From: Candidatus Saccharimonadales bacterium | Lineage (GTDB): Bacteria; Patescibacteriota; Saccharimonadia; Saccharimonadales; JACDFO01 | Direction: 5' to 3' | DNA: 56,621 nucleotides | Assembly: GCA_038255465.1 (NCBI GenBank) | Contig: JBBSLJ010000005.1 | Coordinates: forward strand, 1 to 56,621 | In this document: one piece after another, positions 5,792-41,032 of the stretch | How positions within the stretch are numbered: the first letter of the stretch is position 1 | How the letters are laid out: each line of letters opens with the position of its first letter | The notes under the pieces: generated by a model | What the model saw: the letters and a program-made list of their open reading frames with translations, nothing else | Databases searched by the model: none | Told to the model about the DNA's origin: nothing | Program-made: the position numbers and the translations under genes

Positions 5792-6691
5792 CTATTTTTT
5801 ATCAGCATTAGCAACTGCCTTATACATGTCTATTCTAAAACCGCCAGCCAGGCAATAAGGCAAAAGTTTATTTCCAAGGTCGGGTTGGGACTGTAGCCTA
5901 TGCCACTCAACGACACGCAAATAATCTCTGAACCCAACTACATCCCGCCACTCTGATCGAAGTTTACCAGTAGCGAATCTGGGCGCCCCGGCTGAAATTC
6001 GGAATTCATGAGTTAGAACCGAAAGGTACACATAAAAGGCAAAGCACGCTACTAAAAATACCGGTACCAACATAAGTGAAAAAACGAACGAATCAAGTCC
6101 ACTATATGTTTCAGCTTTTGTGATGTATTTATCTGTAGCTATAAATAAAAAGTACCAAGTAATAATTAGACTGACTGTACCCTTAACAAATCTATCGACA
6201 AACGGCTCTGATTTGGCGTTATCAGTTAGATAGCCCTTGACAATGAGTTGCATTACAACTGATCTTTCGTATTGCCAACGGGTACCTGCCTCTCTGCTAA
6301 AGACAGAGCGCATTTCTTTCCAGCTTCTCGCGCCACCTTCACTATATGTTATATGACCTATTAACACAGCTTCGCAGTCATCCATTTTATTGTTATTAGG
6401 CCGTTCCCTTTCTGCTGAAATAATCAGATCGTTATCAAAAGCTTGTGATTTTGCAGTAAGTGTAAGAATTTTACGTTGCACTAAACCGACAATCGTACCC
6501 ATCATTTCATTTCTGCCGAACTTCCGATCAAAAATATAGCCAAATTCTGCTGGTGTTAAATTATGCGGAGTAGAAAATTGCGTGACAATCGTTTGTTTTG
6601 CATGCCAGTGAGCTTGTACTCTGAGCAAAGACAGTCTTGAAAACAAAACGACGGCCAGCCATATTAGAAAAAGAATTATAAGCAACAGCAT
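5792..6691 (-). CDS. DUF2207-like predicted membrane protein
   Basis: PxxLTPAEFGYIFD...MGTIVGLVQRKIL and W....GFRDYL...LLPYCLAGG patterns recalled for DUF2207; N-terminal and central TM segments. Confidence 0.6.
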   Translation of the reverse strand: MLLLIILFLIWLAVVLFSRLSLLRVQAHWHAKQTIVTQFSTPHNLTPAEFGYIFDRKFGRNEMMGTIVGLVQRKILTLTAKSQAFDNDLIISAERERPNNNKMDDCEAVLIGHITYSEGGARSWKEMRSVFSREAGTRWQYERSVVMQLIVKGYLTDNAKSEPFVDRFVKGTVSLIITWYFLFIATDKYITKAETYSGLDSFVFSLMLVPVFLVACFAFYVYLSVLTHEFRISAGAPRFATGKLRSEWRDVVGFRDYLRVVEWHRLQSQPDLGNKLLPYCLAGGFRIDMYKAVANADKK

Positions 6692-6928: not shown

Positions 6929-7759
6929 TTACTTTTCATCTTTCATTACTTTGGTTACTAAATACTTTGCGGCATTGCCAGGCAGCGCTATGTATCCGTT
7001 TAGTGATAGTGGCGTTTCTTCAATTTTGTGATAACGCCTAAAGAATTTGTCCAGTACATCATGCGACTTTAATGATTGATCTTGGTTAGATGGATCGTTA
7101 TACCAGTAGGCATTTTTTACCGCGAGTAGTGTTAGCCTGCACGCCAGCTCAGCTATAAATCCTGGGTTTTCTGCGTGTTCCTGTACAAAATCGAGTGCAT
7201 TCCAAGTATGCCCCTCAGCACCAAACGGAGCAAGTTTTAAGGTAGTGTCGTTTAAAAGTATCTCTAGTCCCCATCTTTCGGTATAGTCCGGTTCAAAGAC
7301 TATACTTACTTCTGGTATTAGTTGGTTTTTTGCTTGTGGGATATCTGGCACTTCAGGGTCCGGCTGCGGGGTACTATGCCGAACGTGCCTGGACGAAAAT
7401 TTTGAAGACTCGTCTGTTCTTGAAGTTTCAGGTTCGTTATCGATGTAAGTAACATGGTTGCCAATTTTTATTTGATTATTGCCAGTTAACCGTCGCCCGT
7501 CTGACGACTCATATAAAAGCAAACCGTGTAGCCGTGACGGCACTTCTTGACCATCTATTTCGTCATGAGTTGCTAGATACCAGGTATTTTCTTGTTCAAT
7601 GCCGTATGTTTCAAGTAGCCATTGGCAAAAGTGAAACGAAAAAAGTGCTGTATCACGCTGTTCAGCCTTATCGAAATCCCAGCAAATCAAAAGTCCTTCA
7701 GCATAGTCATATACCTCTTGATCGGTAATTTGTTTTGGACCTAGTTCAGGGCGTGGCAT
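6929..7759 (-). CDS. hypothetical protein (276 aa)
   Basis: Long ORF with its own promoter at 7832-7860; no family recognised. Confidence 0.7.
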   Translation of the reverse strand: MPRPELGPKQITDQEVYDYAEGLLICWDFDKAEQRDTALFSFHFCQWLLETYGIEQENTWYLATHDEIDGQEVPSRLHGLLLYESSDGRRLTGNNQIKIGNHVTYIDNEPETSRTDESSKFSSRHVRHSTPQPDPEVPDIPQAKNQLIPEVSIVFEPDYTERWGLEILLNDTTLKLAPFGAEGHTWNALDFVQEHAENPGFIAELACRLTLLAVKNAYWYNDPSNQDQSLKSHDVLDKFFRRYHKIEETPLSLNGYIALPGNAAKYLVTKVMKDEK

Positions 7760-30735: not shown

Positions 30736-31647
30736 TTATAGCTTATCAATCGTAAGCTTGTTATTCTTAACCGTTATTATTAGATGTTCCCCGATTGGAA
30801 GCGGTAATGATGCCGCCTTATAACCCCTTGGAAATTCATACAAAATAGGTATGTTAGCTAAATAATCTCTCTTTGTTACTGACTGCTCAAATTCTTTTTC
30901 GTTTAACATATATGTTTCTGGAAAACTACCTATTAACAACCCGGTGATGTTTTCTTTTGCTCCAGGCAACAGCATAATCGAGTCAAGATTTCGTATAAAA
31001 TCCTGCCAAATTCTGTTTTTGGAAGTTATACAATCTTCACCTTCAAGTAGAAGAATGTAAGGTTCATTAAATTGTGGACAAAACTTGGTACCTTGCAATA
31101 AGTCAAAACTGTAGTTATTGCCACCCCATATTTTTCCTGTCATTTTGCCGGGTCGATAGACCTTAAATGAAATCTGATTATAGAGTCGACTCAGCTCTTG
31201 GTAATTTGATTTGTAAACAGCCTTGAGTGAATTAACGTACAGTTCAAGGAATTGCGGGTTTTTAATTCAGTTTCGTAACATCGGCCCCATTACGCCGCGC
31301 ATCATACCAAAAGCGGGTAATGCATTTACCAGAACCGTATTATCGGAATATCCTACAAAAATCTTGCGTTCATCAAGTTCAAGTGCGGGAATAAACTCTA
31401 AAAGTTCAATTGCATTAAAACCACCATCCCAGGCTATAACAATGTCAGCGTTCTGGGACGCCCGCTTTAGAGACTGTAAACGATCCGTTATTGACCGAGA
31501 ATCAAATATGTCATTTGCCCTAATATCGCCATAAATGCCGAGTTCCATATAGTTGCCTACTGTACGAGCTAACTGCTCAATCTCCACCATATCTTGCTGT
31601 GTTGCGCCAAGGCTCGTAATGCACACACCGACTTTAAGCTTGCTCAT
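30736..31647 (-). pseudogene. S66 family LD-carboxypeptidase / MccF-like peptidase interrupted by one in-frame TGA
   Basis: GGFNAIELL, IFVGYSDNT, GPML, LLEGED, PLPIG. I read the frame by hand from 31647 to 30736: it is continuous except for TGA at 31267-31269. Confidence 0.8.
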
Positions 31648-32479
31648 TCCTACCTATCCTTTCCCCAATCCAACTATCTATGTTTCCACAGGTAAGGTCA
31701 GTAATATCACTTAAATCAACTGCGAATTCTGGTACTCGATACTTATCATCTCCGATAGCCGGGTACTCGTCACGAGGCTTCCACTTAATCACGAGCGGCT
31801 CAACGCCTAGTGCTTCTTTGGTTGCCCAAAAACCTAAGCGTGCTGGCGTAAAATCGGGGAACGCATCAAAATCACAAAAAAGCACCGCCCTAGCTGCATA
31901 CAAACACATAAGTCTCGGGTAGTAATATGCCGCTTTAGAACCCGTTCGCCACCCATTTTCTAAAGCCTGTTCAAGATACCAGTTACTGATATCAAAGACA
32001 TTACTGTCTGTCGCTTGATTTCTAGCAGCTACTACGTCACATAGCGATTGCCAGTATTTCTGAAGCGTTACACCGTAGTTAGTGACAATACTACCGATTT
32101 CGGGCGCTTGTTTGGCCGTGGTAATTTTTTGCTTTACTATCTGCCCCTTCGGCAAAGCAATACGCGGACAAGCCATATTACTTTTTTTAGCATTTGAAGT
32201 CGTAAACTCGTCTTTTGCGTATGTAACGGTCCAAGGCCGCAAGCCTAGTTCATTTGACCTGGAGGCATAATCCAAATCTCCCACCGTTGGTCTGGCAAGA
32301 TATTCAGCTCTAACTGACGGCACCACATCACCATCTAGTGCAAACGCACCGGCTACTAGCTGGTCCGCTAAATAGTTTTTAAGCTCTTTTTGCAAAGAGG
32401 CATCAACACGACGATTGCCCATAATTTCAGCGGCATCATCGGCAGATACATAGTTAATTTCATTCATTATTTTCTCCAA
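31634..32479 (-). CDS. uncharacterised protein (281 aa; alternative start 32467)
   Basis: Long ORF, first gene after the attenuator; overlaps the S66 gene start by 14 nt. Confidence 0.8.
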   Translation of the reverse strand: MEKIMNEINYVSADDAAEIMGNRRVDASLQKELKNYLADQLVAGAFALDGDVVPSVRAEYLARPTVGDLDYASRSNELGLRPWTVTYAKDEFTTSNAKKSNMACPRIALPKGQIVKQKITTAKQAPEIGSIVTNYGVTLQKYWQSLCDVVAARNQATDSNVFDISNWYLEQALENGWRTGSKAAYYYPRLMCLYAARAVLFCDFDAFPDFTPARLGFWATKEALGVEPLVIKWKPRDEYPAIGDDKYRVPEFAVDLSDITDLTCGNIDSWIGERIGRNEQA

Positions 32480-32495
32480 AATGTTGTTAGTACAT

Positions 32496-32523
32496 AAAAA
32501 AACGCCGGAGCATGTCCGGCGTT
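32496..32523 (-). terminator. intrinsic terminator within a 5' leader (attenuator)
   Basis: AACGCCGGA-CATGC-TCCGGCGTT-TTTTT, in the sense orientation between the promoter and the first CDS. Confidence 0.85.
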
Positions 32524-32545
32524 ATATTTTTAGAGAAATAGTAAA

Positions 32546-32602
32546 CTAACCGACGAGCTCCGGCAAAATATGCAGATGGGGGTTAATTTGACTAATATAC
32601 AT
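32546..32602 (-). CDS. putative leaderless leader peptide MYISQINPHLHILPELVG
   Basis: ATG is the 7th nt after a perfect TATAAT. The ORF contains GCCGGAGC (32557-32564), complementary to the terminator 3' arm. Confidence 0.7.
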   Translation of the reverse strand: MYISQINPHLHILPELVG

Positions 32603-32608
32603 AATTAT

Positions 32609-32637
32609 ATTATACTACACTGATTATTTGTTGTCAA
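32609..32637 (-). promoter_or_regulatory. perfect-consensus sigma70 promoter
   Basis: TTGACA-N17-TATAAT. Confidence 0.9.
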
Positions 32638-32688
32638 TACAGGGGTTTTTTGACCGGACTTTGCTGGTACTAAAGTATACTTAGAAGC

Positions 32689-32958
32689 ATGTACCGTAAG
32701 CGCCATGATCAAGCAGTCGATATCTGGAGTTCGGCTCACTTCTTTGAGGGAATCGTTTTTGTTCAATTTCTTCCGCCATTAGTTGCCCTCGCACTGCTGG
32801 CCGCCTGGGAACCATTTGAGAATTTTGTTTTATCGCCCCTGCTTTGGCGCTACTTTAAAATAAACTTTGGTCACGAGAGCCTGCGCAATGCCCTTGGTGA
32901 CATTTACTTTGATGCGCTTGGTATCGCTATCGGCTTGGTATTGTTGCAGCTTTATTAG
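32689..32958 (+). CDS. small membrane protein with conserved-looking H, WE and E..N..GD residues
   Basis: 89 aa, about 3 hydrophobic segments; TATACT 7 nt before ATG. Confidence 0.7.
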   Translation: MYRKRHDQAVDIWSSAHFFEGIVFVQFLPPLVALALLAAWEPFENFVLSPLLWRYFKINFGHESLRNALGDIYFDALGIAIGLVLLQLY

Positions 32959-33031
32959 TAGGATTTTATACACAAGTATGTGCTATAGTAGGCATTAGCA
33001 ATATAAAATAACAACAAAGGCTACTCATACA

Positions 33032-33139
33032 ATGTCAGTCGCAGAAATCAATCAGCTAGCAGGAGCCATACTCGGCGCTTCAATAGCAGTAGTTACTGCT
33101 GTCGTGCTAAAAAGCTACGCAGCCAGCAAAGATTATTAA
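33032..33139 (+). CDS. putative 35-aa single-TM protein
   Basis: Manual translation MSVAEINQLAGAILGASIAVVTAVVLKSYAASKDY; upstream TGCTATAGT extended -10. Confidence 0.45.
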   Translation: MSVAEINQLAGAILGASIAVVTAVVLKSYAASKDY

Positions 33140-33185
33140 AACAGAAGATTAACTGCTCTTTACGTTTCGCCACACGAAAGTATGG

Positions 33186-33854
33186 TTATTTTTTCGCTTT
33201 CAAAACCATTTCTATTTGCGGAACTGGTGTCATGTATTCCGGCCTGTCTTCATCTATAATCACCACCGTGTCAGTTATTTCAAATCCAAAATGTTTATAA
33301 AAATCTATAGCGTTTTGATTGTAGCTTACGACCTCAAGTAAAATATCATGATCGCGGCCGTATATATCTAATACCTGGCGCATTAGTTTGCCGCCAATGC
33401 CTTGCTTCTGAACCTCTGGATCTACATATATAGCCCATATGTGTCTGGTATTGTGTTCATCAATACTTATGTCAGTAAAGCCAACCGTTTTGTCGTCAAA
33501 TTTGGCAACAAATATTTTTTTATTTGGATCGTCATTTGCTAGTTGCTGCTTTAAATAAGCAATACGCCTTGGTACGAATACACCATTCTGGCCTTGGGCA
33601 TTGAGCTTGATCGCGTCAGCCGTAATGCCCAGCTCTGCGTTTGGGTAGGCTCCCATCCAGGCACGGTCACGAATATCACAAATAATTTCAGCATCTTCAG
33701 GAGTTGCAGGTAAAATCTCAACATGCGACTTATAAGTCTCGTGGGTATGGATAACTTTTTGCCTATTAATTACAAGATATGATGGTGCGGCAGAAGCCAG
33801 TCTGCTTGAACCTTTTGACAGTATAAGTGATTGGCTACTTAGCAGTCCAGACAT
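33186..33854 (-). CDS. GNAT family N-acetyltransferase (start uncertain)
   Basis: ILPATPEDA...IYVDPEVQKQGIGGKLM...NQNAIDFYKHFGF. The annotated N-terminus crosses the att-like site. Confidence 0.85.
   Translation of the reverse strand: MSGLLSSQSLILSKGSSRLASAAPSYLVINRQKVIHTHETYKSHVEILPATPEDAEIICDIRDRAWMGAYPNAELGITADAIKLNAQGQNGVFVPRRIAYLKQQLANDDPNKKIFVAKFDDKTVGFTDISIDEHNTRHIWAIYVDPEVQKQGIGGKLMRQVLDIYGRDHDILLEVVSYNQNAIDFYKHFGFEITDTVVIIDEDRPEYMTPVPQIEMVLKAKK
33783..33812. repeat. degenerate direct copy of the tRNA-Leu 3' end (att-like junction)
   Basis: TGGTGCGG-14 nt-CTTGAACC here, against TGGTGCGG-9 nt-CTTGAACC at 39569-39593. Confidence 0.6.
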
Positions 33855-33977
33855 TGACTGGATTTTACAGCTAAGAGAAGCGTCAAGAACAAAGTTTGTT
33901 CAGCAGTATCAGCTCTGATATGAGTGTGCTATTACTCTCGCTAGACGCCATTTGAACCTTTATCTATAATCAGCTAT

Positions 33978-34763
33978 ATGCCAAAGCCACCCTATTACCG
34001 TATTTTTCTAAAAGAAAACTCAAAGACATATCTTCTGTGCCGATTATGGCAACAGAAATCAGATGAAAGCCTTATGTTGCAAGTTGAGCCTAGTAAAACA
34101 GGTGGTAGTGCAACAGTTGGCAAAATTGAAATCACTAGCGACACATTTGAAATTAACTACGAAGATATAGACACTCCCGCAGAAATAGAGCATACCAACA
34201 TACACGCTTCTGGTATGTCGCATACCAAACTTAAAGACGGCACTTACCGATTTAATTACGATAAAGATAACAAAGGCATACCGCTTACGGAGCTAAAGAC
34301 AATCAAACATCTAGGCACTCTATTAAGCCGAGAAATGACAGAAGCTGACGAAAAGTCAGCAGAAAGAGCAAATGATGTGCCTATTGAGCGTAATGCAGGG
34401 CAGAAGTTCAGTGTATTAGACGTATTGGCTGTACCAAAAGGTATTAACTTTAATTTCAGTGCTGATTGGGATATGGAAAATGACCGACCAGTTCAGCTCA
34501 ATGTCGGTATGCACCGATTATCGTTCAACGGTTATGACGTTATTATCTTTACCCGCAGTAGCGACCAGTTTGATGAAGTACCTAGTAAAACATTGCATTT
34601 ACCCGATATGAACAATATCGTACCTTTTGTTACAAAACTGAACGGCAAACAAGCCATAATCAAATTATCAACACTCACATTTGATGAAGTGATTAAACCG
34701 CAAGACCCGAACGACCCTTACGCTGGTTTTACAGTTATTACGGCAACTCCAAAGTGGCTTTGA
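33978..34763 (+). CDS. hypothetical protein (261 aa), island cargo
   Basis: Long AT-rich ORF; TATAAT 7 nt before ATG; HTNIHASGMSH motif. Confidence 0.75.
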   Translation: MPKPPYYRIFLKENSKTYLLCRLWQQKSDESLMLQVEPSKTGGSATVGKIEITSDTFEINYEDIDTPAEIEHTNIHASGMSHTKLKDGTYRFNYDKDNKGIPLTELKTIKHLGTLLSREMTEADEKSAERANDVPIERNAGQKFSVLDVLAVPKGINFNFSADWDMENDRPVQLNVGMHRLSFNGYDVIIFTRSSDQFDEVPSKTLHLPDMNNIVPFVTKLNGKQAIIKLSTLTFDEVIKPQDPNDPYAGFTVITATPKWL

Positions 34764-34905
34764 TTTGTGTCGCACAATGAGTATTGCACGACATGCCCTA
34801 ACAGGGGTAGAGTCGTTTATTTAGCGACATAAGAGCTTGTCAAGTGCTAGTGCTGTTTTCGCCCACCCCTGTTATTTTACATATTATACAATAACGGGTT
34901 ATGGG

Positions 34906-35238
34906 CTAAACTTTGCTATGAAACCAGTCGGTTGACTCAAGCACTTGGTCGCGCAATTTAGCTAAGACCATTTCGCCATATTGCTCACGAGATTTACGCT
35001 TAATCTCTTCCCACTCGCTATCAGCCATAAAAGCTGCCCACTGCTTTTCAAGTGTTGCTTTATCTGACCACTCCAATATGTATACAAACTCAGTCTTACC
35101 TTCAGATTCCGAAAACCACATGGCTTTTATATTAAATCCATAGGATTGCATAATCCGTACAGCGTACTTACGAAACCGAGTATCAAAAGCGGTCTTTAAG
35201 TCTGGTTTTATTTGGTAAATTCTTAACTGATGGATCAT
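34906..35238 (-). CDS. NIPSNAP family protein
   Basis: MIHQLRIYQIKP...FVYILEWSD...WAAFMADSEW; start set at ATG 35238. Confidence 0.85.
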   Translation of the reverse strand: MIHQLRIYQIKPDLKTAFDTRFRKYAVRIMQSYGFNIKAMWFSESEGKTEFVYILEWSDKATLEKQWAAFMADSEWEEIKRKSREQYGEMVLAKLRDQVLESTDWFHSKV

Positions 35239-35276
35239 AGGTATAAGTGTAGCAAAAAAGTTGTATAATAATCTCA

Positions 35277-35600
35277 ATGACTTTACCAGAAGAACGTGGA
35301 GTAGAATTCCGATCAGAATTTGTAGACCAGATAGTTGGTTTTTTCGGGGAGCAATTTAATACTCTACAACCTAAAGAGCGTGGTCATTCGATAGGAGTAA
35401 TAGCAAATACACTAGCAACATTAGCGGTCAACCAAGCTAACGCTGTTGATGCAGATGGAATGGCTGCCACCTTACACACACTCAGCCCTCGCAGTAACGA
35501 ACTTATTGAAACTCTGGTACAAGATGAATCAGCAAGTTATCTATTCCCTCAAAGTGCACGAATCTGTGAAGTTATTCGTGAGGCACTCGCTAGTCGTTAG
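35277..35600 (+). CDS. hypothetical protein (107 aa)
   Basis: TATAAT 7 nt before ATG; fills the gap between convergent and divergent neighbours. Confidence 0.6.
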   Translation: MTLPEERGVEFRSEFVDQIVGFFGEQFNTLQPKERGHSIGVIANTLATLAVNQANAVDADGMAATLHTLSPRSNELIETLVQDESASYLFPQSARICEVIREALASR

Positions 35601-35601
35601 A

Positions 35602-36075
35602 TTACATTGCTCCTTTTGCGTTTTGGTCTACTAGACCACCGATAACAACAGCCCAGTAAATCTCTTCGTCTCCCTCGTAGATAAACTCTTTAACCGTATG
35701 ATCGGCAACATCACCCTCAGTGGTACTTTTGTAGGTCAGGTTATCTTTCTTATATTCAGCAGGTCCACGAAACGGGTTATCTTCACCAGGATGTTGTAAT
35801 GCTTCTCTCAAGAAGTCATAAACAGCATCTGCTGGACGGGTTGTCTGTCCGTAGTAAGCCTCAAGAAACAACGGCTGTTCTTTATAGAAAACAACTAAGC
35901 GTCCACCGTATGGCTCACCACCAAAGAAGTTGTCGTGCATGCGGTAGTCGCCTTCACTATATTCAATAGTCCGTGAACCGTCTTTTTCTTTAACGGTCTT
36001 TGCAGTTCCATTTGCATGAGGCATGTTTGCCTTCATTAGGAACTTCTTGAGTTCGTTCAGGTTGATGCTAGCCAT
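35602..36075 (-). CDS. DUF5680-like protein
   Basis: DGSRTIEYSEGDYRMHDNFFGGEPYGG...FLREAL...PFRGPAEY...GGL; start set at ATG 36075. Confidence 0.7.
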   Translation of the reverse strand: MASINLNELKKFLMKANMPHANGTAKTVKEKDGSRTIEYSEGDYRMHDNFFGGEPYGGRLVVFYKEQPLFLEAYYGQTTRPADAVYDFLREALQHPGEDNPFRGPAEYKKDNLTYKSTTEGDVADHTVKEFIYEGDEEIYWAVVIGGLVDQNAKGAM

Positions 36076-36601
36076 TTGTTCGCTCACTATTCGATTCCTT
36101 GGCAGCCTGTAATAACGCAAGGTCACGAACCTTTATAAACTTGCCCTCATAATTTGTTGGCTCATCTTGCTCAAGAAGTGAGATTGCTCTATCAATATCT
36201 TCAGCCCAAACAATAGAGAACTGTTCTCTGAGTTCCTTGTCTGTAAAATCTGGTTCGCCTTTTTTGCCTACCTGCTTAGCGATAAAACAATAAGATGTCT
36301 GCACTAACTCAAATTGGTCACGATATTCTACAATTTCACCAACTTCTCCAGTTACTTCAGCACTACATCCTATTTCTTCTAATAACTCACGCTCAAGTGC
36401 CGTTGGTATATCTTCACCCTCATCGACACCACCTCCAGGCAGCTTGTGGTAGTCATAAAGCCCAACTCTAAGCAGAGCAACCTTACCAGCATTATCTGAT
36501 ACCACTGCACGAGCAGCTTCACGCTTACGAAAATTAGAAGTGTCTATGGCTGGTGCTTCTGGCGTTATGTCTTGTTCGTTGATTGTAAGTATATTTCTCA
36601 T
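36068..36601 (-). CDS. NUDIX hydrolase
   Basis: Nudix box GGGVDEGEDIPTALERELLEEIG. Confidence 0.92.
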   Translation of the reverse strand: MRNILTINEQDITPEAPAIDTSNFRKREAARAVVSDNAGKVALLRVGLYDYHKLPGGGVDEGEDIPTALERELLEEIGCSAEVTGEVGEIVEYRDQFELVQTSYCFIAKQVGKKGEPDFTDKELREQFSIVWAEDIDRAISLLEQDEPTNYEGKFIKVRDLALLQAAKESNSERTNG

Positions 36602-37059
36602 ATATGTTCTCTTATCTTAGTAGCGATTTCATCAAGCACTTCATCGCTGACCATATTTATTTTATCTTCGTCAATGTGGCTCCCAAATAATGGATCATCG
36701 AATACTATTCCTGCTACTTCTGGTGCAATCTTATATCTTGGATAAATATGCCAGTGGATATGAGGGCTGTAAGGCTCCGTCTTGAATGCGTGGTTCATAT
36801 TGCATTCTATATTTAGCACCTCAGCTCTAAATGCTTTTCGATAAGTATCTTCGAGCTTCCTCATGATTTCTTGAAAGTCTAGTAGCTCTTCACTGGTTAG
36901 TTCGCTAATACTACCTTTATGTTTATTTAATGTTGCGTATGCACGTCCCAAATACGGTTGGTCGTTATATATACCAACACTCCAATTCTCCGTCACTAAT
37001 ATTTGATGCTTTTTGTTAGGTGATTCCAGAAATTCACAGGCATCGCATTTTTTATTCAT
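36598..37059 (-). CDS. HIT family hydrolase
   Basis: Histidine triad PHIHWHIYPR; N-terminal CxxC; TGA stop overlaps the NUDIX ATG. Confidence 0.9.
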   Translation of the reverse strand: MNKKCDACEFLESPNKKHQILVTENWSVGIYNDQPYLGRAYATLNKHKGSISELTSEELLDFQEIMRKLEDTYRKAFRAEVLNIECNMNHAFKTEPYSPHIHWHIYPRYKIAPEVAGIVFDDPLFGSHIDEDKINMVSDEVLDEIATKIREHI

Positions 37060-37319
37060 ACAATAATAATAACAGGGCTAAACAGCATTAGCCATATTAC
37101 TTCGACATATACTCCAAAGCTTGTCCAGTGGTCTGAGAATGCGTCACAGAGGGTGTTTTGGTTGAGGGTTCTTATTCACTAAATGTGCCCTTTGATGTTG
37201 CAGTCCACCTGCCCCTGAGATTTTTTTGGAATATACACCGTCTAACGCCATTTACTCGTATAATCACTTACTTTCCTCACACCAAAATCTGCGAAATCAT
37301 TGCAAAAACAACGGATTTT

Positions 37320-37553
37320 CTATGGTAGTGTAAAGAAACTGAATACCACTTCATTTTGCCTTTGTTTCGCCGCCAGCATCCTGTCCCTAAACACTTCATT
37401 GTTCCTCATGTAATAAAAGAAAGTGGTCCGACTAATCCCTGCCCATCGGGACGCTTCAGCAATTGTAGAATTATGCTGCAAGGCATCTTCAAGACGAAGC
37501 ATGGTGGTGTAGGTTACTTTTGGTTTTCGTCCTATAGCTTTTCTTATATCCAT
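37320..37553 (-). CDS. small helix-turn-helix DNA-binding protein
   Basis: 77 aa, AAGGAG SD; GRKPK...TIAEASRWAGISRTTFFYY. Confidence 0.7.
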   Translation of the reverse strand: MDIRKAIGRKPKVTYTTMLRLEDALQHNSTIAEASRWAGISRTTFFYYMRNNEVFRDRMLAAKQRQNEVVFSFFTLP

Positions 37554-37622
37554 TAGACTCCTTTGTTTTTCGGCGTTATCTCTGTTCTAATTATACTAAA
37601 TTAGCATAACCATAAAATATAC

Positions 37623-37651
37623 TTGACAATCCTTATGCTTAGGCGTATAAT
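37623..37651 (+). promoter_or_regulatory. perfect-consensus sigma70 promoter facing the recombinase
   Basis: TTGACA-N17-TATAAT. Confidence 0.85.
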
Positions 37652-37657
37652 TAGTAG

Positions 37658-37713
37658 CATAGACTCCAACCAAAAGACCTTTCAGTAGAGGTTCTTTGCA
37701 TGGAGTCTATTTT
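37658..37713 (+). ncRNA. candidate short hairpin RNA or attenuator
   Basis: Begins at the predicted +1. ATAGACTCCA pairs with TGGAGTCTAT (10 bp), enclosing an inner AGACCT/AGGTTCT stem; TTT follows. Confidence 0.4.
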
Positions 37714-37813
37714 GATTCTATGCGAGCCTTAGCGGACTAATAAAACTACCGTGCTGAAAACTTTTGCGAGGTGGAGAACCTAAAACACTTCACTGGTCAA
37801 AGACGGATACAGT

Positions 37814-37990
37814 GTGAGCGACAATGCCTTACAGCAAGTTCTACCAAACAAAAAGATCGAACAAATAAATGTAGATGACGGACTGATAGAGTATACAGAT
37901 GCACTTGAAGCCATAGACGAAAACAGCCCCTTAGCTGAATTGAATGCGATTTCCATATCAGACAATAATGGTGGTCGTATCTTCCTATAA
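37814..37990 (+). CDS. putative 58-aa acidic protein upstream of the recombinase
   Basis: Manual translation from GTG: VSDNALQQVLPNKKIEQINVDDGLIEYTDALEAIDENSPLAELNAISISDNNGGRIFL. Confidence 0.45.
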   Translation: MSDNALQQVLPNKKIEQINVDDGLIEYTDALEAIDENSPLAELNAISISDNNGGRIFL

Positions 37991-38012
37991 AACAGAGTAA
38001 AATTAAGTTAGT

Positions 38013-39590
38013 ATGCAAGTCGTGGAAGAAATAGACAGAACAAAACTGCGTTATGTTTTGTATGCTCGTAAATCTACTGAAGATGAGGGCAGTCAGGTCA
38101 GAACTCATAAAGACCAGATAAAGCACTGCATGAAGCTTGCTGAAGCCAGAGGGTTGAACGTGGTGGATACTTTTAAGGAAAGTAAGTCAGCCAAGAAGTC
38201 GAATAACCGCCCAATCTTTAACCAAATACTCGAAGATATTAGAAATAACAAATACGACGCTATTCTAGCGTTTGCCCCAGATAGACTCTCTCGCAATATG
38301 CTTGAAGGTGGCTTACTCATCAACATGCTAGACGAGGGCATGATAAAAGACCTCCAATTCCCAACTCTGCTATTTTCAAATGATGCTTCAGGCAAATTAA
38401 CTCTGGGAATAATGTTCTCAATATCCAAACACTTCTCAGACGACCTATCCCGCAAGGTTCAGTCAGGTGTGTCAGGAAACCTTGAAGACGGAAAATCAGG
38501 TGGTCAGCCCAAATGGGGTTATGATAGAGATGACCAAGACGGATTATATCGCCCTAATGACTGGTTCGATGTTGTACAAGAAGCATGGTACATGAGGGCT
38601 AGAGGTGCTACAAACAAAACCGTACTGGAATACTTGTTGGAAAAAGGCTACCACCGCATGACGAAAGTTTCGAGGAAGAATAAATTTAGCAAGAAGATAG
38701 TACCCACTGAAAAAAGCGTAGGTCAGATGTTCCGTGACCCTTTTTATTATGGTTTACTTGTGCAAACTGAACAGACTATCGATCTACCTCGTTTTCACCT
38801 CGACTTTGTGCCCATGATTAACGAAGATATTTATAATCAGGTTCAAGCTTTGGCATATACCAGAAAGCGAGATATTGACCCCAAGAAACGAACTGAGTTC
38901 AAACCACTGAGGCACATGGTGTACTGTGGCGTTTGTAAAAGTGATAAGTGGATGTCAGTTGGCAAAAATTTGCCAGGCGGAAGCACACACCACGTATTGT
39001 CATACGAGTGCAAAAACTCTGATTGTTCTCGTAAACCTAAATCTGTTAGAGCCAAATTCATCTTTGATGCTATGTATGAGCTACTTGAGAAACTAGAGCT
39101 GTCAGACGAAGCGTATGAACGTTACAGCAAGCGTATAGACAGCTTCACCGACGCAAAAATCCTCAAGATTAAACAAGATATTGCCAGCAAGAACGGAGCC
39201 AATGCTCATAAAAAGCGAGAACTAAATGAGTTATCACTTGGACTGGGTAATATAAACCGTAGCTCAAAAGCCTACGCCATTACCGAAAGTAAAGTTGAAC
39301 AGCTTGCCATTGAGACTCAAGACTTAGACGATGAGATAGGCAAGCTGAAGGATAAAATTGCAAATCCAAGTAAAATCAAGCTAACCAAAGAACAGTTCTT
39401 GTACCTAGTAAAATTAGCACCTGACAAGATGAGAGCAGGTTCAGCAGTTGAAAAAGACCGTGTTGCACGCATTTTGTTCTTGAACCTGACTGTAGACAAT
39501 GAAAAAAGGGTCTTCCCAATCTGGAAAGAACCCTTTGCCAGCCTCGTAAAGGCTATTGAAATGTCGTCTGGTGCGGATGAGAGGACTTGA
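38013..39590 (+). CDS. large serine recombinase (integrase)
   Basis: Catalytic YARKS, DRLSRN, recombinase domain, Zn ribbon CGVC...CKNSDC, coiled coil. Confidence 0.95.
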   Translation: MQVVEEIDRTKLRYVLYARKSTEDEGSQVRTHKDQIKHCMKLAEARGLNVVDTFKESKSAKKSNNRPIFNQILEDIRNNKYDAILAFAPDRLSRNMLEGGLLINMLDEGMIKDLQFPTLLFSNDASGKLTLGIMFSISKHFSDDLSRKVQSGVSGNLEDGKSGGQPKWGYDRDDQDGLYRPNDWFDVVQEAWYMRARGATNKTVLEYLLEKGYHRMTKVSRKNKFSKKIVPTEKSVGQMFRDPFYYGLLVQTEQTIDLPRFHLDFVPMINEDIYNQVQALAYTRKRDIDPKKRTEFKPLRHMVYCGVCKSDKWMSVGKNLPGGSTHHVLSYECKNSDCSRKPKSVRAKFIFDAMYELLEKLELSDEAYERYSKRIDSFTDAKILKIKQDIASKNGANAHKKRELNELSLGLGNINRSSKAYAITESKVEQLAIETQDLDDEIGKLKDKIANPSKIKLTKEQFLYLVKLAPDKMRAGSAVEKDRVARILFLNLTVDNEKRVFPIWKEPFASLVKAIEMSSGADERT

Positions 39591-39652
39591 ACCTCCACGC
39601 CTTGCGGCACGTGCTCCTAAGGCACGCGTGTATACCATTTCACCACATCCGC
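39569..39652 (-). tRNA. tRNA-Leu (anticodon TAG), CCA encoded
   Basis: GCGGATG/CATCCGC acceptor stem, D loop TGGTA, anticodon arm GTGCC-TTAGGA-GCAC, long variable arm, GGTTCAAGTCC. Confidence 0.97.
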
Positions 39653-39667
39653 TCGCACCGCGTTAGT

Positions 39668-40201
39668 TTACGAAATTCTGCGGTAAATTACTAGTGTTGC
39701 ATCACCATAAGCTTTTTCTGACAGTAATGTAAAATTTGAATCAAGCTTAAAGTCATGGTCTGGCGGTAACGAATAAATAACCAATCCATCTACTTTGGCA
39801 TGCGTAGCTAGCTTGTGGAGCAGCGTGTATGGCACGGCATCATAGGGAGGATCTATTAGCACCACATCAAATGTAATGAGTTTGTTATTCCGAGACCAGC
39901 TTTTTACGTCCTTTCTAACCAGTTTAACTTGCTCGGCTATCGCCAGTGTTTGTATATTTTGCGTAATAATTTTAAATGCCTCGATGTCGAGCTCGACAGC
40001 CGTCACAAACTTCGCTCCACGGCTTACGGCTTCAATCGCCAGAGCTCCTGTTCCAGAATAGGCATCAAACAGTGTAAGACCGCTAATATCACCAAGCATA
40101 TTAAAAATTGCGCCACGGATTTTTTCGCTCATTGGATGCGTTCGGTGGCCTCTAGGGCTTTCGAATGGTCTGCCACCTAGTTTTCCTGCTATTACTCTCA
40201 T
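39668..40201 (-). CDS. rsmD: RsmD family 16S rRNA m2G966 methyltransferase
   Basis: MRVIAGKLGGR...THPMSEKIRGAIFN...DAYSGTGALAIEAVSRGA...DPPY. Confidence 0.9.
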   Translation of the reverse strand: MRVIAGKLGGRPFESPRGHRTHPMSEKIRGAIFNMLGDISGLTLFDAYSGTGALAIEAVSRGAKFVTAVELDIEAFKIITQNIQTLAIAEQVKLVRKDVKSWSRNNKLITFDVVLIDPPYDAVPYTLLHKLATHAKVDGLVIYSLPPDHDFKLDSNFTLLSEKAYGDATLVIYRRIS

Positions 40202-40207
40202 CGTGCC

Positions 40208-41032
40208 TTACTTCTTAGTTTCGGTTAGCTTGGCATCGCGCAGTGCGGCGTACCACGTCAAACAAACGCTCTGAACTAACAGCGGACCAAGTTTGTGGCG
40301 AATATCATATGCTAAACGAGGCGTCCAACCTTTTCGATGATAACGCTCATACATATCCATAACGGCAATTTCTCTAGCGGTTCTTTTAAACCAAACTTCT
40401 GGACCAATTTCATGCATGCGGGCCATATCCGCTTTCGTAGGTACGGCTTCGCTGAATGTAAGCGGCATTATTAGCGTAGCCACACCCATCTCAAATAGCC
40501 CATGTGTAGTAAATAAACCTTTTGGTCCCCACATTTTCCAGTTGTTCTTTACCTGTTCACGTCGTGTATCGCCATGCATCACCCACTTTTCTTTAATAGT
40601 GGTACGAGTTTCGATACCTTCGCCGCCTCGTAGCTCTACGAGCTTTTCTTCGTATGGATAATGGTGCGCTGGTGTCAGCCCGTCGACAATAGCATGTGCT
40701 AGCCATGCTGCCTCAAAGGCACTTCTTTCATGATTTCCTGACTTAAGCTGGCTAACGAGTAATTTGTAATGATCATTGATGAGCTGCGGCAATTTTGAAT
40801 CATTATCATCAAATGGGTCATAGTAATGCCACGGTTCGTCTTTGGCTGGGGACTTACGCTTGATTGCATCCGGCCCGTTTTTGCCCTCAAAATGTAGGAT
40901 CTGCTTAGACGCCGGAAAGGCGGAATTATCTGATATCAAATGCGCAAGGTGCCTGCGTGCGACACGATCTATTTTTTGGTGTGCACCAAGCACGCGGCCT
41001 GAGTAACGGGTAAGGGTAGTTCCAGAATACAT
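40208..41032 (-). CDS. conserved hypothetical protein, possibly Zn-dependent phospholipase C / S1-P1 nuclease-like
   Basis: AHQKID...HYYDP...WLAHAIVDGLTPAHH resembles the H..D...P.H metal-ligand motif of that fold. Confidence 0.55.
   Translation of the reverse strand: MYSGTTLTRYSGRVLGAHQKIDRVARRHLAHLISDNSAFPASKQILHFEGKNGPDAIKRKSPAKDEPWHYYDPFDDNDSKLPQLINDHYKLLVSQLKSGNHERSAFEAAWLAHAIVDGLTPAHHYPYEEKLVELRGGEGIETRTTIKEKWVMHGDTRREQVKNNWKMWGPKGLFTTHGLFEMGVATLIMPLTFSEAVPTKADMARMHEIGPEVWFKRTAREIAVMDMYERYHRKGWTPRLAYDIRHKLGPLLVQSVCLTWYAALRDAKLTETKK

Follow-up and report, generated by a model that had tools for sequence, protein, structure and literature searches.

A putative integrative element whose large serine recombinase gene runs into tRNA-Leu(TAG) in a Candidatus Saccharimonadales bacterium

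The window analysed here, a stretch of 56,621 nt from a Candidatus Saccharimonadales bacterium (GCA_038255465.1, contig JBBSLJ010000005.1, positions 1 to 56,621), very probably (about 85%) contains an integrative element at 33783..39576 that was inserted by a large serine recombinase at the CCA end of tRNA-Leu(TAG), with the recombinase gene spanning the junction. The element is 5.8 kb in length, and its features are listed in Table 1. Tyrosine integrases usually target the 3' ends of tRNA genes, and serine integrases usually insert inside genes. The family described here appears to break this rule, in that a serine integrase acts at the very end of a tRNA gene and leaves the gene undamaged. 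Insertion at tRNA ends by this family spans much of the Saccharibacteria/CPR lineage, and literature searches returned no account of tRNA ends as targets of CPR serine recombinases.

Table 1. Features of the putative element and its target tRNA. TTGAAC positions are counted from the T of TGG.
Feature	Position	Strand	Remarks
attL core TGGTGCGG	33783..33790	+	antisense of tRNA end CCGCACCA; identical to 39569-39576
Tail exon, 44 codons plus stop	33784..33918	+	GAAEASLLEPFDSISDWLLSSPDIDWILQLREASRTKFVQQYQL, then stop; translated only when fused in excised form
CTTGAACC, P' arm, candidate zinc-ribbon-domain (ZD) motif	33805..33812	+	TTGAAC at position 24
Conserved non-coding segment after tail stop	33919..33959	+	sharp end at TTTGAACC; alignment A2
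Variable cargo gene, 261 aa	33978..34763	+	no family match; between two conserved patches
Conserved non-coding patch, ~130 nt	34766..34895	.	10-bp inverted repeat TAACAGGGGT (34799), ACCCCTGTTA (34865)
NIPSNAP-like cargo gene	34906-35277	-	Pfam
Cargo gene of no assigned family	35277-35600	+	
DUF5680 cargo gene	35602-36126	-	Pfam
NUDIX cargo gene	36068-36601	-	Pfam
HIT cargo gene	36598-37059	-	Pfam
77-aa HTH protein, small-terminase N-terminus-like	37320..37553	-	phrog_4102, 3.7e-6
Divergent control region, HTH gene versus recombinase operon	37554..37813	.	22-nt hairpin at 37659-37710
58-aa ORF directly upstream of recombinase	37814..37990	+	conserved module; no family match
Large serine recombinase, integrated form, 525 aa	38013..39590	+	last 7 codons plus stop antisense to tRNA
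attR core TGGTGCGG	39569..39576	+	8-mer at tRNA end
CTTGAACC, T-loop antisense, B' arm	39586..39593	+	TTGAAC at position 19; supplies TGA stop
tRNA-Leu(TAG), host target	39569..39652	-	ARAGORN call; intact; CCA encoded

The recombinase and the tRNA gene that it overlaps

On sequence comparison, the window protein is a large serine recombinase with a resolvase-type catalytic domain and a four-cysteine zinc ribbon that carries an inserted coiled coil. Residues 15-160 matched Pfam Resolvase (PF00239) at 3.2e-18, and residues 8-500 matched the PHROG integrase family phrog_95 at 3e-51. The match to Recombinase (PF07508) was weak, at 19.3 bits and under the cut-off of 21.1; this domain is present in many homologs of the protein, and it is confidently modelled in the AF2 prediction for a relative. 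No variation was seen among 19 homologs at the catalytic residues R19, S21, R66, D90, R91 and R94, the zinc-ribbon cysteines C305, C308, C333 and C338 are also invariant among homologs, and the AF2 model of relative P0115 places long helices (365-411 and 419-450) between the zinc-ribbon strands. The nearest solved structure by sequence is the catalytic domain of TP901-1 integrase (3bvp, 6.4e-10).

tRNA-Leu(TAG) is present as a single copy in the genome, and the Rfam tRNA model scored 58.8 bits at 39572..39652. The original prediction held that the last codons of the recombinase gene are antisense to this tRNA over 22 nt, and the ORF and ARAGORN coordinates confirmed it. The C-terminus reads ...AIEMSSGADERT and ends with SGADERT and the stop, and the overlap at 39569-39590 covers, in antisense, the CCA end, acceptor stem and T arm. 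The codons TCT GGT GCG GAT GAG AGG ACT TGA are the antisense of ...TCAAGTCCTCTCATCCGCACCA, so that the TGA stop codon is supplied by the T-loop.

A survey of homologs for tRNA overlap, which had been proposed along with that prediction, revealed that the linkage is family-wide. Among 72 Saccharibacteria/CPR loci, each followed by 100 nt of sequence or more, an antisense tRNA overlapped the recombinase 3' end in 66, and by exactly 22 nt in 51. The tRNA overlap is a family trait. This survey refutes the explanation that the overlap in the window arose by chance or as an artefact of gene calling, with the true gene end further upstream: the shortness of the overlap, and nothing else, speaks for such an origin, against which stand the identical frame and overlap length in the 51 loci and a recombinase ORF without any earlier stop, making its likelihood negligible.

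The overlapping tRNAs across the homolog loci are those for Leu, Pro, Met, Val or Phe. The type of tRNA clusters on the recombinase tree, with 20 changes compared with 41 in shuffles and a count as low in 0 of 200, and recombinases that are approximately 90% identical were found at different tRNA-Leu isoacceptors. The 1.2-Mb genome from which the window is taken has four such recombinases, of which at least three terminate within a tRNA gene, and a second element of the same layout (C16:14291-18378) has tRNA-Pro(GGG) as its target.

Ends of the element and evidence for excision

The sequence TGGTGCGG occurs twice in the 56.6-kb window when both strands are counted, at 33783 and 39569, which are the ends of the element. 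In an alignment of nine elements (A2), conservation begins sharply at the left end, with TGGTGC at 33783, and the sequence to the left of this position is unrelated among the nine elements and often resembles a terminator hairpin. Across 18 delimited elements, attL and attR have a common core of 6-13 nt counted from TGG, and identity to the left of TGG extends over 0-5 nt, mostly 0. The two ends thus share a short core only, without long direct repeats, as for serine integrases. A generic repeat search of the window returned chance-level repeats only, no second copy of the tRNA 3' 25-mer was found across the window with up to 3 mismatches, and a sensitive blastn search of the reconstructed attP against 32000-41000 detected the two ends alone, with no second inverted copy inside the element. 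Judged from these sequences, the crossover must fall in the first six bases of the core, TGGTGC, and a 2-bp crossover would most likely lie in TGGT, which is found throughout the family and is the antisense of ACCA.

The register of the TTGAAC motif was compared between the two arms. In 17 of the 18 elements the motif lies at position 24 in the element and at position 19 in the tRNA, a constant shift of 5 bp. In phage-type large serine integrases, as in this element, the junctions share few bases and a ZD-type motif is displaced by 5 bp, the ZD motif being that much closer to the centre in attB than in attP half-sites (PMC3783163); the shift of TTGAAC matches this published attP/attB model. 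No clear mirror image of TTGAAC was seen in the P arm. To the left of the core, the host half-site lacks conservation, an uncommon situation among serine integrases, and recognition therefore seems to depend on the tRNA half. This apparent reliance on a single half-site may interest those who engineer integrase targeting.

The predicted circle junction (39568/33783) reads ...ATGTCGTC TGGTGCGG CAGAAGCC... and the predicted empty-site junction (33782/39569) reads ...AGATATGA TGGTGCGG ATGAGAGG... A contig of 5204 bp from a relative (L115) has a terminal overlap of 30 nt, no tRNA, and a fused ORF of 563 aa with a homologous tail; the k-1 length of the terminal overlap suggests that this contig is circular. 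The junction predicted for the subfamily of the window element is present in two metagenome contigs, one of which, L121, is a chromosomal relic adjoining hisS and not a circle. Tandem arrays of elements also recreate the fused recombinase gene. The gene order RecG-RsmD-tRNA-Leu(TAG)-HisS occurs without a recombinase in most relatives, and when the element at locus L013 was excised in silico, its left flank and tRNA were colinear with the empty site of the sister genome G001.

For the window copy, the interval between HisS and the tRNA in G001, a genome of the same genus, is non-homologous to that in the window, and no before/after pair was obtained. No excised form or empty site was detected for this copy in the Logan contigs of the runs, which as assembler contigs drop rare variants. 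Read depth was flat over the element in the runs that carry it, loose ends at 39569 in Logan contigs belonged to tRNAs of other organisms, and a junction scan of viral contigs gave 0 matches.

The undetected excision of the window copy in these contigs would suit a different reading, in which the recombinase would be a vertically inherited relic that no longer moves, or else a domesticated host gene, and would lie beside the tRNA by position only, as would the finding that recombinases of 43-90% identity occupy one tRNA-Leu(TAG)-RsmD locus in several genomes. This reading is very improbable given that the locus lacks a recombinase in most relatives, the same-genus genome included, that relatives of about 90% identity lie at different tRNA-Leu genes, and that a circular form and tandem arrays exist. 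In addition, the cargo at 34952-36808 is nearly identical in aquatic metagenomes of other studies, and the window copy has every part intact.

Two C-termini and their possible role

Since attP lies inside the integrase ORF, the protein has a different C-terminus in the integrated and the free state. In the integrated copy this is a six-residue stub, GADERT, read from the antisense of the tRNA, and the joined form has a tail of 44 residues in its place. It had been proposed from the window sequence that attP lies inside the recombinase gene and that the C-terminus differs between the two states; the left end of the element, the circular relative, the junction contigs and the tRNA linkage all support this, and translation across the reconstructed attP, the check suggested at the time, verified the in-frame join of the recombinase 3' end to the tail, with a product of 563 aa. 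The first ~30 nt of the tail exon double as the P' half-site.

The tail frame is open over 44-45 codons in 22 of 22 loci. Its pN/pS ratio, 0.33 for the whole tail and 0.24 for codons 11-44, compares with about 1.5-1.8 in the other two frames and 0.16 in the last 100 codons of the recombinase, and by these ratios the frame is coding and under purifying selection. The motif SIA(D/E)W..NP...W...L.EA...Y.Y is kept in clades targeting Leu, Pro and Met tRNAs; the retention of both length and motif across clades indicates that the tail has a role in the excised state, the one state that allows its translation. AlphaFold assigned the tail a pLDDT of 31-39, so that the model, which predicts a flexible tail at low confidence, is silent on the contacts of the tail. 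A protein database search with the tail alone returned 27 word candidates, none of which scored, and retrieved from the close subfamily no full-length protein in the attP form.

In the proposed mechanism, the recombinase would insert the element exactly at the CCA end; the tRNA is left intact. Following the published model for large serine recombinases, the enzyme would recognise the acceptor stem and T arm of the tRNA as the B' half-site, with the tail-coding left end of the element serving as the P' half-site. Integration would trade the 44-aa tail for the 6-aa stub and may thereby couple the activity, direction or stability of the enzyme to its state, and convergent transcription with the tRNA gene may damp expression of the recombinase once integrated. 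The truncated enzyme would then carry out excision, perhaps with the 58-aa or the HTH protein as a directionality factor.

Tentatively, the tail swap could be a self-contained device for directionality or commitment, in which the 563-aa form, made from the circle alone, integrates and the 525-aa form behaves differently, being locked, prone to excision or of altered stability. In that case the state of the DNA would set the state of the enzyme, and no separate circuit would be needed for the decision. The serine integrase concerned would require a single specific half-site in the host, namely the universally conserved tRNA 3' end. The same structure might instead, again doubtfully, involve no switch: the overlap would stem from compactness, the 563-aa protein would behave as the 525-aa protein does, and direction would come from a separate factor. 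A tail predicted to be flexible, at low confidence, would agree with this, the conservation of L-E-P (CTT GAA CC) could reflect a constraint on the half-site at the DNA level, and conserved small genes that might encode a directionality factor adjoin the recombinase; moreover, the altered Mx8 integrase remains active (PMC6070905). Two observations argue against the absence of a switch, namely that codons 11-44, which lie outside the half-site, have a pN/pS near that of the recombinase body, and that tail length and motif are kept across the Leu, Pro and Met clades. With a protein sequence that depends on state, directionality in a serine integrase becomes testable with two proteins and sites of ~50 bp.

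According to reviews, elements with serine recombinases insert within genes (PMC5704250). The window enzyme has the resolvase domain, a weakly matching recombinase domain and the zinc ribbon with coiled coil of the Listeria A118/LI, TP901-1, phiC31, Bxb1 and SPbeta SprA integrases. The window element differs from phage-type serine integrases in its target, the extreme 3' (CCA) end of a tRNA gene that is left intact, in having one conserved host half-site only across its family, and in the location of attP inside the integrase ORF.

The concept of an integrase gene that spans attP has precedents among tyrosine integrases, for example that of Mx8, whose target is likewise a tRNA gene. The Mx8 attP lies within the integrase coding sequence, and integration creates a new C-terminus (PMC6070905). 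Mx8 Int is however a tyrosine recombinase of a 49-kb phage, whereas the window family consists of serine recombinases in elements of 3-9 kb, and unlike in Mx8 the integrated-state tail of the window enzyme is read from the tRNA antisense itself. In the integration-dependent immunity of the mycobacteriophages BPs, Brujita and cluster P (Broussard et al. 2013), a gene contains attP at its 3' end, and integration at a tRNA 3' end drops a C-terminal segment and alters the behaviour of the protein (PMC9635641). In that immunity system the attP-spanning gene encodes the repressor, which loses a degradation tag, and integration is catalysed by a tyrosine recombinase, whereas here the integrase itself is shortened. 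Archaeal integrases of the SSV1 type also have attP inside the integrase gene and a tRNA gene as their target, but these are tyrosine recombinases whose gene is split in two, whereas the window element swaps the last 44 codons. The window enzyme therefore resembles the Mx8/SSV1 type in layout and, having serine chemistry, is not a member of it.

The tycheposons of Prochlorococcus are small cargo elements at tRNA genes that contribute variable islands to streamlined genomes; 474 of 501 have tyrosine recombinases, and partial tRNA repeats are left behind (bioRxiv 10.1101/2020.12.28.424599). The window element, in contrast, has a serine recombinase and a repeat of 6-8 nt (8 nt here), and illustrates the formation of variable islands beside tRNA genes in ultra-small genomes, in which few mobile elements are known.

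Cargo and accessory parts

The expectation of a compact, non-phage element fits the size of the element and the content of its 5.8 kb, in which no structural, replication or transfer genes were recognised, with the small-terminase-like HTH protein as a caveat. This 77-aa protein matches small-terminase PHROGs over the N-terminal HTH only. Its gene is found in 9 of 19 elements, one of which (L019) has a full-length form of 142 aa, and the match of the 142-aa relative to Sf6_terminase (0.004) was below the cut-off. Given the resemblance to a small-terminase N-terminus, transfer as a phage satellite is possible. PICI-like phage satellites carry a packaging-hijack gene such as a small terminase, whereas the HTH protein in the window matches the N-terminal part only, and no helper is known.

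The 77-aa HTH protein is a candidate regulator or directionality factor, and the 58-aa protein, whose ORF adjoins the recombinase gene in about 25 loci (tblastn), is a candidate directionality factor; neither protein showed homology to known directionality factors. Other elements, the second element of this genome (L002) among them, share conserved DNA with the control region that separates the HTH gene from the 58-aa ORF.

The 10-bp inverted repeat of the ~130-nt patch is invariant among elements, and the patch is probably a protein-binding DNA site. As a structured RNA the patch was rejected, having an invariant 10-bp stem only and no covariation, and Rfam models gave no match in the window besides the tRNA. 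The conserved segment that follows the tail stop may act as a terminator or as an accessory site. Among the cargo genes, NUDIX and DUF5680 recur in elements with different recombinases (L037 and L063).

Recombinase gene and its overlap with tRNA-Leu

The 525-aa product of the recombinase gene has the C-terminus AIEMSSGADERT and is, by sequence, a large serine recombinase (LSR). It contains a Resolvase domain (3.2e-18), only a weak match to the Recombinase domain, and a PHROG integrase match spanning residues 8-500 (3e-51); the catalytic residues R19, S21, D90, R91 and R94 and four zinc-ribbon cysteines are invariant in its homologs. ARAGORN called tRNA-Leu(TAG) as the sole tRNA in the window, and Rfam supported the call (58.8 bits). 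The original prediction that the 3' end of the recombinase gene is antisense to this tRNA was confirmed, the overlap being 22 nt. The codons TCT GGT GCG GAT GAG AGG ACT TGA are the T-loop, T-stem, acceptor stem and encoded CCA in reverse complement, and the stop codon is supplied by the T-loop TTCAAGT.

Coordinates of features in the window, in other contigs of its genome (C16, C23, C27) and in related loci (L089, L116)
Feature	Location	Strand	Remark
Integrative element	33783..39576		
attL core	33783		TGGTGCGG
attR core	39569		TGGTGCGG
LSR gene	38013..39590	+	
tRNA-Leu(TAG)	39569..39652	-	
Left-end (tail) patch	33783-33959		
TTGAAC 8-mer, P' arm	33805..33812		
TTGAAC 8-mer, B' arm	39586..39593		
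Third CTTGAACC	39479-39486		
Non-coding patch	34766-34895		
Near-identical cargo	34952-36808		NIPSNAP to HIT
GNAT acetyltransferase ORF	33186-33854	-	
S66 LD-carboxypeptidase (MccF-like) domain ORFs	30736-31143, 31267-31647	-	C-terminal and N-terminal domains
Second element	C16:14291-18378		intact, same design; recombinase overlaps tRNA-Pro(GGG) by 22 nt
Third recombinase	C27:2407-4119		reads 132 nt through tRNA-Trp, antisense
Fourth recombinase	C23:9915-11486		C-terminus WRARPDSNW; tRNA-like end without ARAGORN call
Tandem tRNA-Leu(TAG) calls	L089 1282-1475		
Region with the P0030 gene	L116 10001-14507		

A protein search with the recombinase returned 2056 relatives. The best 120 of these, at 54-92% identity, were from Saccharibacteria, and nearly all of them terminated in ...G-ADERT, ARERT, RGDRT or GGGWT, which look like tRNA 3' ends read backwards. 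Genomic loci were fetched (n=79) and scanned with ARAGORN. Linkage to tRNAs held across this homolog survey: among the 72 loci whose downstream sequence reached 100 nt or more, an antisense tRNA overlapped the recombinase end in 66, by exactly 22 nt in 51. The target tRNAs were Leu (TAG, CAG, GAG, TAA), Pro (GGG, CGG, TGG), Met, Val and Phe. Three of the other six loci ended in tRNA-Met-like 3' halves without an ARAGORN call, and three had a longer recombinase C-terminus. At loci L064, L068 and L025 the recombinase entered a tRNA-Met-like 3' half that matched as far as the anticodon (..GTTATGC) and then diverged, with no ARAGORN tRNA call; these ends could be intron-containing or disrupted tRNA-Met genes.

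On a maximum-likelihood tree, target tRNA type clustered with recombinase clade (20 changes vs 41 in shuffles). Within the clade of the window's enzyme, ~90%-identical recombinases occupied different tRNA-Leu isoacceptors, which argues for movement rather than inheritance in place. Of the 46 tRNAs in the window's genome (1.21 Mb), 43 have their CCA encoded and just one is tRNA-Leu(TAG); the genome carries three further recombinases of the same kind. In the C16 element the core is TGGTCG, the tail has 44 codons and TTGAAC is at position 24, and the end of the C23 recombinase looks like an uncalled tRNA end.

Element boundaries and the host site

In DNA comparison with related loci, two patches lying 2.5-3.5 kb to the left of the recombinase proved to be conserved. 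Conservation of the first begins sharply at TGGTGC, which is also how the CCA end reads in antisense, and the DNA left of this edge is unrelated between loci and often terminator-hairpin-like, as expected of sequence that originally followed a tRNA gene. The core TGGTGCGG occurs in the window only at the two junctions, which delimits an element of ~5.8 kb. In 18 delimited elements the junction pairs shared 6-13 nt from TGG, starting TGGTGC (Leu), TGGTCG (Pro) or TGGTGG (Met), with 0-5 nt of identity leftward, mostly none. Crossover would have to occur inside the shared TGGTGC; TGGT, which is common to all subfamilies, is its most likely place. A GNAT acetyltransferase ORF has its nominal start and initial 24 codons within the left end of the element, antisense to the tail exon; the following in-frame Met, residue 67, already lies in the fold. 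This gene either takes its start from the element or is 5'-truncated.

In 17 of the 18 elements the tRNA has TTGAAC, as its T-loop, from position 19 and the element arm has it from position 24, both counted from the T of TGG. In serine integrases the zinc-ribbon-domain motif of attB is closer to the centre than that of attP, by 5 bp (Rutherford et al. 2013, PMC3783163), and the 5-bp shift is that predicted by this model for P' and B' half-sites. The fit is poorer on two points: the opposite host arm is without conservation, and the P arm, formed by the last recombinase codons and strongly conserved as DNA, has no clear mirror motif. Site recognition may be largely by the tRNA half. A third CTTGAACC, 90 nt upstream of the core within the recombinase's invariant FLNL codons, may be a coincidence or a candidate accessory site.

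Synteny of RecG, a 274-aa gene, RsmD and tRNA-Leu(TAG) extends throughout the order. The site is free of a recombinase in most relatives, and HisS directly follows the tRNA in several. G001, a genome of the same genus, has the tRNA, no recombinase, and a HisS-tRNA interval unrelated to that of the window. This and the order-wide synteny identify the tRNA as the host's and the downstream DNA as a variable island. In silico removal of the element from the occupied locus L013 left a sequence that is colinear with the G001 empty site across the junction.

A partial repeat of the tRNA 3' end (21 nt, TGGTGCGCGAGAAAGGACTTG), broken off inside the T-loop, lies ~190 nt downstream of tRNA-Leu both at the empty site (L114, the G001 locus, ~7076-7100) and in L013 (~6516-6540); it may be the scar of an older element with another crossover point. 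The two tandem tRNA-Leu(TAG) calls in L089, 30 nt apart beside RsmD, may have arisen by duplication or be left over from an integration. Compared with the window, the element and tRNA-Leu of L016 are inverted relative to RsmD/RecG and HisS, while in L091, which has no recombinase at the locus, the tRNA alone is inverted; the breakpoints of both inversions flank the tRNA. The two S66 LD-carboxypeptidase domains lie in separate ORFs with a 123-nt gap, which may reflect a frameshift in, or splitting of, a gene of the hisS operon.

An attP within the recombinase gene

In the frame of the recombinase (GGT GCx ...), 44 codons of the left-end patch are open before a stop and encode GAAEASLLEPFDSISDWLLSSPDIDWILQLREASRTKFVQQYQL. 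When the circular form was rebuilt by joining 39568 to 33783, the recombinase ORF continued in frame across attP to 563 aa. The tail frame was open for 44-45 codons in 22/22 loci examined, including Pro- and Met-targeting elements, with the common motif (L/F)E(P/L)..SIA(D/E)W(L/F)(I/L).NP...W...L.EA.......Y.(Y/L). The tail has no conserved start codon, so translation is possible only within the fused gene.

Fused forms were also found in other sequences. P0115, a 563-aa relative with a homologous tail, is encoded on a 5204-bp contig (L115) that has no tRNA and has a 30-nt terminal overlap, the pattern expected of a circular molecule assembled with k=31. The junction predicted for the window's subfamily (...AIEMSS joined to GAPEDRCLEPLESISDWLLSSPD...) was found exactly and in frame in two metagenome contigs, one of them a chromosomal relic beside hisS. 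In the tandem array of L118 the inner recombinase is fused to the tail of the next element and the outer one overlaps tRNA-Pro, so a resident attR can serve an incoming element as target. No circle or empty-site junction of the window copy was seen in the assembler contigs of the runs that contain this element. The window element was also searched for a second, inverted copy of the joined ends (a spare attP), and none was found. The in-frame join, P0115 and the junction contigs support the original prediction that attP lies inside the gene and gives differing C-termini; we consider the element, its ends and the state-dependent C-terminus well supported (probability about 0.85). L116 encodes P0030, a 553-aa recombinase of 75% identity that ends in another tail, of 32 aa. 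Its neighbours are an HTH gene, a DUF87/TrwB-like ATPase and another serine recombinase, with no tRNA beside it; the arrangement may reflect insertion of one mobile element into another.

In ten close elements pN/pS of the tail was 0.33, and 0.24 for codons 11-44, outside the presumed half-site; the other two frames gave ~1.5 and ~1.8, with stops, and the last 100 recombinase codons 0.16. AlphaFold modelled the body of the circular relative confidently and the tail as two short helices at pLDDT 31-39, and a protein database search with the tail alone gave no matches. That the exchange of tail and stub is a functional switch is a tentative and rather doubtful hypothesis, its main rival being a neutral overlap of gene and attP.

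By mechanism the enzyme is a large serine integrase. It differs from those described in targeting the extreme tRNA 3' end and leaving the tRNA intact, in having only one conserved host half-site, and in an ORF that spans attP. Rewriting of the integrase C-terminus by integration has precedents, and is found here in a tRNA-end-targeting serine integrase. Integration rewrites the SSV1 integrase in this way, and that enzyme is a tyrosine recombinase. The same is true of phage Mx8, also with a tyrosine enzyme (PMC6070905), and mycobacteriophage integration-dependent immunity likewise strips a repressor of a C-terminal tag (PMC9635641). According to a review on integrative mobilizable elements, tRNA 3' ends are used by tyrosine enzymes, whereas serine enzymes insert within genes, disrupting them (PMC5704250). 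Literature searches turned up no description of the present family. Tycheposons are an ecological analogue, but their enzymes are tyrosine recombinases.

Gene content of the elements

Element sizes were 3.1-8.9 kb (n=19). The genes recurring in these 19 elements were the recombinase, an ORF of 58-73 aa immediately upstream, and a small HTH protein similar to the N-terminal part of a small terminase (77 aa in the window, phrog_4102, 3.7e-6; full-length 142-aa forms in other elements); all others were variable cargo. In the window the cargo comprises a 261-aa protein without a family match and NIPSNAP-like, DUF5680, NUDIX and HIT genes. No replication, conjugation or virion genes were recognised in the window element, and transfer as a phage satellite is possible but unsupported. 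The NIPSNAP to HIT segment was 99-100% identical in aquatic metagenome contigs from other studies (runs X2 and X3), whose recombinase region differed by 5-10% from that of the window, suggesting mosaic exchange of modules.

A conserved non-coding patch of ~130 nt was present inside at least 12 elements. It contains an invariant 10-bp inverted repeat (TAACAGGGGT at 34799 and ACCCCTGTTA at 34865, 56 nt apart) enclosing a conserved TTGTCAAG. No covariation was found in the patch, which makes it a candidate protein-binding DNA site rather than an RNA; it looks like a DNA site, perhaps an origin, operator or packaging site. A variable cargo gene sits between this patch and the tail patch.
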